32,000 nucleotides of DNA, taken from contig JBAZRV010000004.1 of the NCBI GenBank assembly GCA_041662745.1, positions 90,001 to 122,000 of the forward strand. Reading direction: 5' to 3'. The notes beneath the pieces were generated by a model. That model worked only from the letters and a program-made list of their open reading frames with translations. It did not search any database and was not told the origin of the DNA. A program made the position numbers and the translations under genes. The stretch is from Patescibacteria group bacterium (GTDB lineage: Bacteria; Patescibacteriota; Patescibacteriia; 2-01-FULL-39-33). Positions within the stretch are counted from its first letter, which is position 1. Each line of letters starts with the position of its first letter. Of this stretch, positions 18,938-19,241 are shown in pieces.

Positions 18938-19146
18938 GCACCCCTGGTGAAATGGATATCGCGACTGGCTTCGGACCAGTTATCGGGGGTCGCGAAGCGA
19001 CAAGATAGCAATGAACTGCGAGTTATGTCGGAAGACATAACGAGCGAGTGAATGCCGCCGAGGCGCCGGTGGCGCGGCGGCGCTATCCCTGGACAACGAA
19101 TTGTTTCGTTTTCTGACGAAACAGTGAGGCGAAAAGAACCGCCAAT
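18938..19146 (+). ncRNA. tRNA-Arg(UCG)-like RNA carrying a divergent member of the same structured insertion (family copy 2)
   Basis: Positions 18938-18990 match the 5' 53 nt of the downstream tRNA-Arg with 3 substitutions. The fold is P0 gtcgc/gcgac, P1 gatagc/gctatc (19004-19009 / 19082-19087), P2 GCGAG-ttatgtc-GGAA-gacataa-CGAGC, then the conserved GTGAATGC and a GC-rich hairpin. Confidence 0.6.
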
Positions 19147-19169
19147 AATAATATAAACTAAAAATCTAA

Positions 19170-19241
19170 GCACCCATGGTGAAATGGATATCACGACTGG
19201 CTTCGGACCAGTTATTGGGGGTTCGAATCCCTCTGGGTGCA
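19170..19241 (+). tRNA. tRNA-Arg (anticodon TCG), 72 nt, no encoded CCA
   Basis: GCACCCATGGTGAAATGGATATCACGACTGGCTTCGGACCAGTTATTGGGGGTTCGAATCCCTCTGGGTGCA. Anticodon stem ACTGG/CCAGT with loop CTTCGGA. Confidence 0.9.

Follow-up and report, generated by a model that had tools for sequence, protein, structure and literature searches.

Why does a look-alike of tRNA-Arg stand directly upstream of an intact tRNA-Arg gene, and what is the sequence that interrupts it? We address this question for a 32,000-nt stretch of a Patescibacteria genome (contig JBAZRV010000004.1, positions 90,001 to 122,000; hereafter the window), in which look-alike, insert and intact tRNA-Arg together occupy positions 18938–19241. 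The core of the insert, together with its flanking hairpins, is referred to as X. X is a new RNA family supported by covariation, which occurs in Buchananbacteria-like Patescibacteria and is found only at tRNA genes. Tentatively, with a confidence that stays somewhat short of even, we favour the explanation that X is an RNA gene cassette without a protein of its own, spreading among tRNA genes and using their promoters.

The look-alike (18938–18990, plus strand) corresponds to tRNA-Arg positions 1–53 plus U54. It is identical to positions 1–53 of the intact tRNA-Arg(TCG) at 50 of 53 sites, and the three substitutions followed by divergence agree with a preliminary description of this locus, all of whose strings were found where it had placed them. 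The fragment spans the acceptor 5′ strand, the D arm, the anticodon arm, the variable loop and the T-stem 5′ strand. Neither ARAGORN, which called only the intact tRNA-Arg, nor the Rfam tRNA model (no match at E ≤ 10) recognizes it as a tRNA. The corresponding fragment in a related genome (locus L024) matches its intact tRNA-Arg at 53 of 53 positions. A hairpin termed P0 (gtcgc-gaa-gcgac, 18989–19001), read from the sequence and seen in the fold, joins the tRNA fragment to the element; every tRNA-embedded copy has a hairpin at this position, with a different sequence each time.

Next to P0 lies the core of the Arg copy, a three-way junction (19003–19088, or 19003–19098 including the tail), which RNAalifold also predicts and which our covariance model R1 recognizes. 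P1 (19003–19009 with 19082–19088) closes the junction with 7 bp. The P2 arm begins with a tandem G.A base, TGAA/TGAA (19012–19015 with 19049–19052), continues with an inner tandem G.A, CGAG/CGAG (19019–19022 with 19041–19044), and ends in a 7-bp stem, P2b, capped by GGAA (19023–19040). P3 is a GC-rich hairpin (19054–19081), and the tail ctggacaacg (CTGGACAACG) occupies 19089–19098. Beyond the core, a P4 hairpin (tgtttcg-ttttctga-cgaaaca, 19102–19123) was read from the sequence; equivalents with U-rich loops exist at L024, L028 (tRNA-Leu), L054 and L029 (tRNA-Arg). A distal hairpin ggcg...cgcc (19128–19143), which overlaps an antisense segment reaching to 19148, is followed by an AT-rich spacer (19149–19169) and the intact tRNA-Arg(TCG) (19170–19241), called by ARAGORN and scored at 65.7 bits by the Rfam tRNA model. 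All these features lie on the plus strand.

The window holds two further inserts of this kind, at tRNA-Lys and tRNA-Gly, and single-sequence folding of the Lys, Arg and Gly inserts gave one common three-way junction. The shared fold consists of the 7-bp closing P1, a P2 arm whose tandem G.A base is flanked by Watson-Crick pairs, and a P3 arm that usually has a 3-nt bulge. In a MAFFT alignment of 10 copies, 95.7% of the cells are paired and 11 of 20 pairs show changes on both sides. The covariation score of this alignment is 0.449 versus 0.208 in shuffles, none of 500 of which reach it, and controls with slid partners are 30–39% paired. A model-based alignment of 12 copies is 94.4% paired with compensatory changes in 15 of 20 pairs, and leans towards the structure because it was fitted to the model. 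RNAalifold independently predicts the same junction, with an extra covarying pair that joins the second base of the linker to the one following P2 (A-U five times, G-C four times). P1 occurs as GGGCAGC/GCTGCCC, GTACAGC/GCTGTAC, GGTCAGC/GCTGACC, GGATAGC/GCTATCC and GGTTGG/CCAACC, and P3 as TGAATGC/GCATTCA, TGAAAGC/GCTTTCA and CAAATAC/GTATTTG. G-U pairs occur on this strand of X only, which argues for an RNA rather than a duplex-DNA signal. The preliminary description had proposed that covarying helices set these inserts apart from chance resemblance; covariation, shuffles and slid controls support this for P1, P2 and P3, as does the purifying selection described below.

The Arg insert had been described as a divergent member of the RNA family of the Lys and Gly inserts, and the shared fold and its covariation bear this out, together with an intermediate copy. 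This copy, L054, links the subtypes by combining the P1, the linker (J12) and the tail of the Arg type with a P3 of the Lys/Gly type. The P2 base reads YGAR...YGAR throughout: CGAG/CGAG in the window Lys and Gly copies, TGAG/CGAA in L028, CGAA/TGAG in L079, and TGAA/TGAA in the Arg type, L054 and the L028 Leu copy. The architecture is retained between Arg and Lys/Gly copies as far as the three-way junction is concerned, and the helix-by-helix match proposed for P2 and the junction was shifted. The string GCGAG...CGAGC, previously taken as the homologous P2 base, is in the Arg copy (19018–19022/19041–19045) the second, inner tandem G.A. The inner motif is also present in most Lys/Gly-type copies (AC-GA-stem-GA-A-GT) and absent from the L079 Gly copy. 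Likewise, the supposedly conserved junction GTGAATGC is in the Arg copy the 3′ half of the P2 base motif plus the start of P3, and is not homologous to TGAATGC of the Lys and Gly copies, which forms the P3 5′ strand and pairs with GCATTCA. The shared string is therefore a coincidence of register.

We found 12 copies of X at eight loci: Lys, Arg and Gly in the window; Arg at L024; Lys and Leu at L028; Lys and Arg at L029; Gly at L079; and Glu at L054, L084 and L085. Other tRNA identities, for which a search had been suggested, thus do carry X (Leu and Glu), so that its hosts are tRNA-Lys, -Arg, -Gly, -Leu and -Glu. The syntenic loci L024, L028, L029 and L079 were reached through homologues of the neighbouring SPFH protein (90–95% identity), L054 by a metagenome pattern scan, and L084 (on the same 957-kb contig as L024) and L085 through homologues of the gene next to L054. 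Model R1, built from 10 copies, defines the family by a 7-bp P1, YGAR/YGAR at the P2 base, P3 directly after it, and a P1 3′ strand GCUnnCC followed by the tail C(U)GGA. The Arg copy has all these features and its core scores 74.2 bits (E = 2.5e-14), as one of the sequences that built R1; independent support comes from L084 and L085, the two further copies that R1 recovered, which were not used for the model and fit equally. The proteins of the window are bacterial (FtsH, RNase J, YchF, NusB, RNase III and a PilT-like ATPase), and the window matches a metagenome contig in ENA. For two proteins, the neighbouring SPFH protein and one encoded at a related locus, the sources name the homologues Patescibacteria or Candidatus Buchananbacteria.

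All 12 copies, in about 175 kb searched, lie at tRNA genes. Within the 32 kb of the window, the motif of the three copies occurs only at those three sites (0.02 expected), and a broader pattern for both subtypes hits only true copies (0.00 expected). Of 48 loci from the metagenome scan, two were genuine, namely L054 and L069, the latter being the L024 contig; all others proved to be coding DNA or an unrelated repeat. The pattern CGAG-N6-YGNRAG-N6-CGAG-N4-6-TGAATGC, which rested on the wrong register, gave 20 matches in a genome collection, all in unrelated, mostly high-GC coding DNA and at about the chance level. The two subtype patterns had no match in viral contigs, a blastn search of the Arg element against phage records gave none, and a literature search found no description of such an element. 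The database scans relied on exact patterns, so that further members of the family may have been missed. None of the 4227 models of Rfam 15, including hammerhead, twister, twister-sister, pistol, hatchet, group I and II introns, 5S, signal recognition particle (SRP) RNA, 6S and Y RNA, matches X at its gathering threshold. At E ≤ 10, window positions 18500–22700, L084 and L054 gave no family-like match; the only rows that overlap a copy of X are at chance level and far below threshold, for example the S10-Clostridia leader on the Arg copy (19.2 bits against a threshold of 35.1, E = 1.2).

An assembly artefact was rejected, as the same architecture is found in independent ENA, JGI and Logan assemblies. 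On the side, we notice that Logan assemblies of related samples stop inside tRNA-Arg or tRNA-Gly at three contig ends (L022, L023 and L080). Such breaks are as expected if duplicated tRNA parts confuse short-read assembly, and these loci may be under-represented in public data.

Comparing the Arg locus of the window with that of L024 revealed that conservation is concentrated on the element and the tRNA. The Arg element from P0 to the tail (18991–19098) is 97.2% identical (105/108), the P4 region 93%, the tRNA fragment 94% and the intact tRNA 100%. Meanwhile, the identity is 71% in the spacer before the intact tRNA (19144–19169), 61% in the DNA upstream of the Arg copy and 64.7% at third codon positions of the SPFH gene. 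This comparison shows strong purifying selection on X, and the diverged flanks argue for vertical descent under such selection and against recent transfer.

Each copy of X lies within a broken second version of a tRNA gene, and the intact gene stands next to it. Where the interrupted duplicate lies upstream it keeps a 5′ fragment, and where it lies downstream it keeps a 3′ fragment; fragment length varies from 19 to 53 nt. The junction falls after position 46, in the variable loop, in the Gly and window Lys copies, after G19 in the D loop in the Lys copies of L028 and L029, and at U54 in the Arg copies, with T-loop junctions overall at positions 54–58. At L028, the order is an intact tRNA-Leu, a terminator hairpin, X, the tRNA-Leu 3′ end repeated in direct orientation (AGTCCGGCTCCGGGCA) and another terminator, which is the mirror image of the window. 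L054, L084 and L085 share the order DUF4015 gene, tRNA-Glu, terminator, X, with no tRNA after X, and these copies sit between two terminators. The Glu copy is old and vertically inherited, since the neighbouring protein is only 71–73% identical between the L054, L084 and L085 genomes. The preliminary description had proposed the rule that the same tRNA identity follows downstream. This holds for Lys, Arg and Gly in the window, because each copy sits in a partial duplicate of its host tRNA gene, and fails as a family rule at the L028 tRNA-Leu gene and the three tRNA-Glu genes.

The presence of X varies between relatives. The window carries it at Lys, Arg and Gly; the genome of L024 and L084 at Arg and Glu, with Arg only at the L024 locus; L079 at Gly only; L028 at Lys and Leu; and L029 at Lys and Arg. 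Precise empty sites exist at tRNA-Lys and tRNA-Gly of L024 and at tRNA-Lys of L079. At L024, the intact tRNA-Gly and tRNA-Lys stand behind the same flanks as the pseudo-tRNAs of the window, so what the window has in addition is X, the spacer and the 5′ part of the tRNA for a second time. The Lys core of the window shares 85% identity with its Gly core, against 64% with the Lys cores of L028 and L029, which indicates spread between tRNA genes within a lineage.

The Lys copy occupies 18624–18789 on the plus strand, with pseudo-tRNA-Lys positions 1–46 at 18624–18669 (42/46 identical to the intact gene), P0 at 18670–18686 and the core, at 72.5 bits with R1, at 18687–18768. A short direct T-arm remnant and then GAACCTGCGAC (18779–18789) follow the core, and the intact tRNA-Lys(CTT) lies at 18812–18885. 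The Gly copy occupies 22236–22397 on the minus strand, with pseudo-tRNA-Gly positions 1–47 at 22397–22351 (47/47 identical), P0 at 22350–22335, the core at 22334–22253 (89.9 bits with R1), P4, and TCGACCTCT at 22244–22236; the intact tRNA-Gly(GCC) is at 22131–22204 on the same strand. Both intact genes were called by ARAGORN and the Rfam tRNA model, which gives the look-alikes 27.7 (Gly) and 20.6 bits (Lys), under its threshold of 29.

A promoter scan found sigma-70-like sites upstream of both copies, TTGATT-17-TAAAAT with TG (18582–18610, plus strand) before Lys and TTGACT-17-TAAAAT with TG (22436–22464, minus strand) before Gly. Both stretches are orthologous to the L024 DNA directly upstream of its intact tRNA-Lys and tRNA-Gly. 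The original promoter-like sites of the tRNAs thus now lie upstream of pseudo-tRNA and X in the window, and the scan found no terminator-like site between X and the intact tRNA on the tRNA strand.

In the favoured explanation, X would be made as the 5′ part of a tRNA precursor, in one transcript running from fragment and X through the spacer to the tRNA, and RNase P, by cutting at the 5′ end of the intact tRNA, would free it. The tRNA-Glu copies probably have their own promoter and terminator. On this reading, X is the gene of a stable small RNA with a core of about 100 nt, or 150–190 nt with P0, P4 and the distal hairpin. New copies could arise at the DNA level, by template switching during replication or recombination, or by single-crossover integration through short tRNA homology. 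Copying of this kind would yield a partial duplication and a short inverted tRNA copy at the far junction, and recombination between the direct tRNA repeats could remove copies precisely.

Short inverted tRNA copies are indeed present. Most copies of X hold 9–13 nt antisense to the variable-loop/T-arm region of the neighbouring tRNA, spanning or abutting the junction, at the end of X opposite the direct tRNA fragment. In the window they are GAACCGCCAATAA at the Arg copy (19136–19148; tRNA-Arg 43–55, 12/13 against TTATTGGGGGTTC), GAACCTGCGAC at the Lys copy (tRNA-Lys 46–56, 11/11) and, shared with L079, TCGACCTCT(GC) at the Gly copy (tRNA-Gly 41/43–51; 9/9 and 10/11). Those of the other loci are CGGACTCGAACAGG at L028 Leu (45–58, 13/14), CAGGGAGTCGAAC at L085 Glu (52–64, 12/13) and GGAATCAAAC at L054 Glu (52–61, 9/10). 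Shuffled sequences reached the local-alignment score 4 times in 1000 for Arg and never in 1000 for Lys, and 0–18 times per 1000 over five tests (window, L079 and L085); the runs in the L085 and L028 leaders were reached 0–1 times per 2000. The L054 segment is weaker, at 23 per 1000 shuffles, and its exact run is not significant. A closing stem around X, formed by the antisense segment and the tRNA fragment, fits L028 Leu, L085 and the Gly copies, whereas the Lys segment pairs locally and the Arg pairing is weak; this model was not adopted.

The source of the antisense segment must have been a tRNA sequence that was not interrupted. The segment can be read in two ways, as a scar of template switching at the duplication or as a guide that pairs with the tRNA or its gene. 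As a guide, it could pair X with the variable-loop/T-arm region of the neighbouring tRNA or pre-tRNA. The role of X may be tRNA-directed, and pairing with the neighbouring tRNA is the best lead.

Several observations weigh against the cassette explanation or its guide component. The transcription, processing and stability of X are all inferred, as is the copying mechanism, and no mobilising protein was found in the loci seen. The identity of 97% between Arg elements could in principle reflect recent transfer, though the diverged flanks argue otherwise. All known copies come from one clade, the Buchananbacteria-like Patescibacteria. The counts of paired cells overstate the independent events because several copies are orthologous (window and L024 Arg; window and L079 Gly; L028 and L029 Lys; the three Glu copies). 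The antisense segment is missing or weak in 4–5 of the 12 copies: none was found in L028 Lys, L029 Arg or L084, and those of L029 Lys and L054 are marginal. Where present, the segment stands before the core (5′) in the downstream type and after it (3′) in the upstream type, which weakens the guide reading and fits a junction scar at least as well.

The first rival takes the guide at face value and is, in our estimate, rather unlikely. It proposes RNA-guided insertion, in which the antisense segment pairs across the site and X enters exposed tRNA loops by the action of a ribozyme, or of a protein whose gene lies elsewhere, through reverse splicing and reverse transcription or a bridge-RNA-type recombinase. 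In its full form, to which we give the same limited credence, X is a new protein-less, RNA-guided mobile element whose antisense segment recognizes the tRNA variable-loop/T-arm region or its gene and directs insertion there; the tRNA segment would be duplicated in the same event, the host would survive, and the same pairing might act on the neighbouring tRNA. Consistent with this idea, junctions lie in or beside tRNA loops (after G19, after 46 and at 54–58), and the sequences after the junction are alike (GG|TCGA, GG|TCGC and GG|TAGA). At L028 Leu, X is flanked by ...TTTTCG and AGTCCGGC, and its 5′ leader CGGACTCGAAC is the exact reverse complement of GTTCG|AGTCCG spanning the site. The L085 leader is antisense to the T arm of its own tRNA-Glu at 11 of 11 positions (0 of 2000 shuffles), and the L054 and L085 leaders differ where they pair with the single T-loop base that distinguishes their tRNA-Glu genes. 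On the other hand, the guide-like segment changes sides of the core between the two types, and the tRNA copies that X interrupts have decayed, so that no working tRNA is made by splicing X out. No recombinase, reverse transcriptase, IscB or TnpB was seen in the window or any fetched locus, nor any match to an Rfam intron or ribozyme. To our knowledge, the X core of about 100 nt is also far below any known self-splicing intron in size.

It is less probable still that X is a cis-acting leader, which controls transcription, folding or processing of the downstream tRNA while the pseudo-tRNA competes with the real 5′ half for pairing. All three window copies do stand after a promoter-like site and before the intact tRNA, the scan found nothing terminator-like in between on that strand, and the fragment is identical or nearly so to the intact tRNA (47/47, 53/53 and 50/53). 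However, the Glu and Leu copies are downstream of the intact tRNA, behind a terminator hairpin and with no tRNA after them, and close relatives have the same tRNA genes without the element. A fragment whose length ranges so widely does not favour a leader either.

More doubtful again is a non-autonomous DNA transposon of the type of miniature inverted-repeat transposable elements (MITEs) or IS200/IS605 palindrome-associated transposable elements (PATEs), with its transposase elsewhere and a fold that reflects single-stranded DNA or is incidental. X is short, multi-copy, polymorphic and free of open reading frames (ORFs), and it has hairpins at its ends (P0, and P4 or the distal hairpin), with palindromic GTT...AAC ends in several copies. 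Yet a long tRNA stretch is duplicated instead of a short target site, and terminal inverted repeats were not seen. The internal three-way junction, GNRA loops, tandem G.A motifs and strand-specific G-U pairs, and a conservation of 97% against about 65% at SPFH third codon positions, also speak against this type of transposon, as do the absence of a transposase from all loci seen and a total of only 12 copies in about 175 kb, all of them at tRNA genes.

Least probable of all, and very unlikely, is that the partial tRNA repeats, with the DNA between them, remain from integrase-mediated integration of larger elements, for instance prophages or islands: a partial tRNA duplication beside an insert is the classic signature of integrative elements (PMC9897764) and the L028 tRNA-Leu locus has their classic polarity (intact tRNA, insert, 3′ fragment), but the inserts are 150–230 bp long and mutually homologous across five tRNA identities, most copies keep a 5′ instead of a 3′ fragment, the window has no integrase, phage records and viral contigs gave no match, and covariation and conservation show selection on the RNA fold. 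Integrase scars and a simple DNA repeat fit worst, given this covariation and conservation and the lack of a recombinase in the loci seen.

X shares features with several known systems. Like tRNA-targeting integrative elements (tyrosine-integrase prophages, integrative and conjugative elements, genomic islands), X has a partial direct tRNA repeat flanking the insert, leaves one tRNA intact, has junctions in tRNA loops, varies between strains and is lost precisely. Those elements, however, span kilobases, encode an integrase and leave a 3′ fragment, whereas X is 0.15–0.23 kb long, lacks an ORF, mostly leaves a 5′ fragment, keeps the same core at five tRNA identities and is itself a conserved RNA fold. 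No tyrosine or serine recombinase was found in Pfam scans of 27 window ORFs or in precomputed Pfam lists of the related loci. Correia/NEMIS elements, Rickettsia palindromic elements and IS200/605 PATEs are, like X, short, ORF-less, multi-copy and polymorphic and, as proposed for X, co-transcribed with a host gene, but X is more than a simple palindrome, is confined to tRNA genes, and has covarying helices with G-U pairs on one strand. Of the features of MITEs and PATEs, hairpins are present at both ends of X, and no terminal inverted repeats or short target duplication were seen. The omega RNAs of IscB/TnpB and the bridge RNAs of IS110 share with X a structured scaffold beside a stretch that matches the insertion site; the scaffold of X is much smaller, and the stretch that matches, antisense to the tRNA, can stand on either side of the core. 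No IscB, TnpB or IS110 gene is found within 10 kb of any copy examined.

Introns in tRNA genes (bacterial group I introns in anticodon loops, archaeal bulge-helix-bulge introns at non-canonical positions) resemble X as structured RNAs at tRNA loop positions, and the archaeal pre-tRNA-Trp intron with its C/D guide RNA pairs antisense with its own tRNA, as X might. In contrast to them, X has a bacterial host and no Rfam intron match, and its interrupted copy is decayed or truncated beside an intact one, so that no splicing is needed. For a bulge-helix-bulge motif, the analysis of X covered inspection only. A group I intron was rejected: X gives no Intron_gpI match, has P0–P4 only without a pseudoknotted core, and the last exon pair in L028 is G-C, not U.G. 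A hammerhead was likewise rejected, since only the tandem G.A beside a helix fits, the P1–P2 linker is 1–2 nt (A or AR), no unpaired base stands between P3 and P1, and Rfam gives no match. For a K-turn or C/D box, no D box lies opposite GAUGA, a stretch inside a covarying Watson-Crick helix. SRP RNA, Y RNA and RNase P RNA differ in architecture and have no Rfam match. An integron attC site does not fit, as P0 has GTT...AAC ends but is far too short and lacks the core consensus, and neither does the template repeat of a diversity-generating retroelement, as the differences between fragment and tRNA are not adenine-specific.

The likeness to 5S rRNA deserves mention. Both are three-way junctions of about 100–120 nt, and the strings CGAAC, AGUGAAAC and GCCGAUG are common to X and the loop C/helix regions of bacterial 5S rRNA. 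They occur in the 5′ leader and at the start of P1/P2, for example at L054 2130–2095 on the minus strand. In 5S rRNA, however, these strings occupy other structural positions, the Rfam 5S model has no match at E ≤ 10, and X is multi-copy and dispensable at most loci; 5S rRNA was rejected on the ground that only short strings are common. CGAAC of X is complementary to the tRNA T-loop GUUCG. A hairpin module, GC-GACC(N3-5)GGA-GC, recurs in different arms of X, namely the P3 loop of the window Lys copy (18735–18745), the Gly copies and L029 Arg, and the P0 loop of the Lys copies of L028 and L029. The GCGACC of this module has its complement in GGUCGC, where the variable loop of tRNA-Lys meets the T-stem.

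In Patescibacteria, whose genomes are tiny and whose tRNA genes are single-copy, one would not expect a conserved RNA to settle again and again in duplicated tRNA genes and to use their promoters. If X is an RNA gene cassette spreading with no protein of its own, it represents a new way for small RNAs to multiply, and would account for unusual tRNA look-alikes and broken assemblies in these genomes. Should the antisense segments prove to be guides, X would be a natural guide-plus-scaffold RNA aimed at tRNAs. Either way, X is a new covariation-supported RNA family, whose model can be run on all candidate-phyla genomes.

We also notice variation in the surroundings of the copies. The tRNA-Arg(TCG) of the window (19170–19241) has an unusual D arm (GGTGAAATGGATATCAC). 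L029, a relative with 90% SPFH identity, has a canonical-looking tRNA-Arg(TCG) at 287–360 plus its own very divergent X copy, and its Lys and Arg units differ in order and orientation from the window. Between tRNA-Lys and the Arg copy of the window, a hairpin gaggcgcac-caaaa-gtgcgtctc (18893–18915) is kept in L024, with an equivalent in L028; it is terminator-like but without a clear U tract and may be a processing stem. The distance from tRNA-Arg to the SPFH gene is 22 nt in the window and about 1.5 kb in L024 (8440–10000), where three small ORFs (39, 67 and 168 aa) have no Pfam match; this stretch may be another insertion 3′ of tRNA-Arg. Between tRNA-Gly and tRNA-Leu of the window (22050–22122), AT-rich tandem repeats are found, with TAATTTC about four times and a 15-nt unit about twice, and the same stretch is present in L024.

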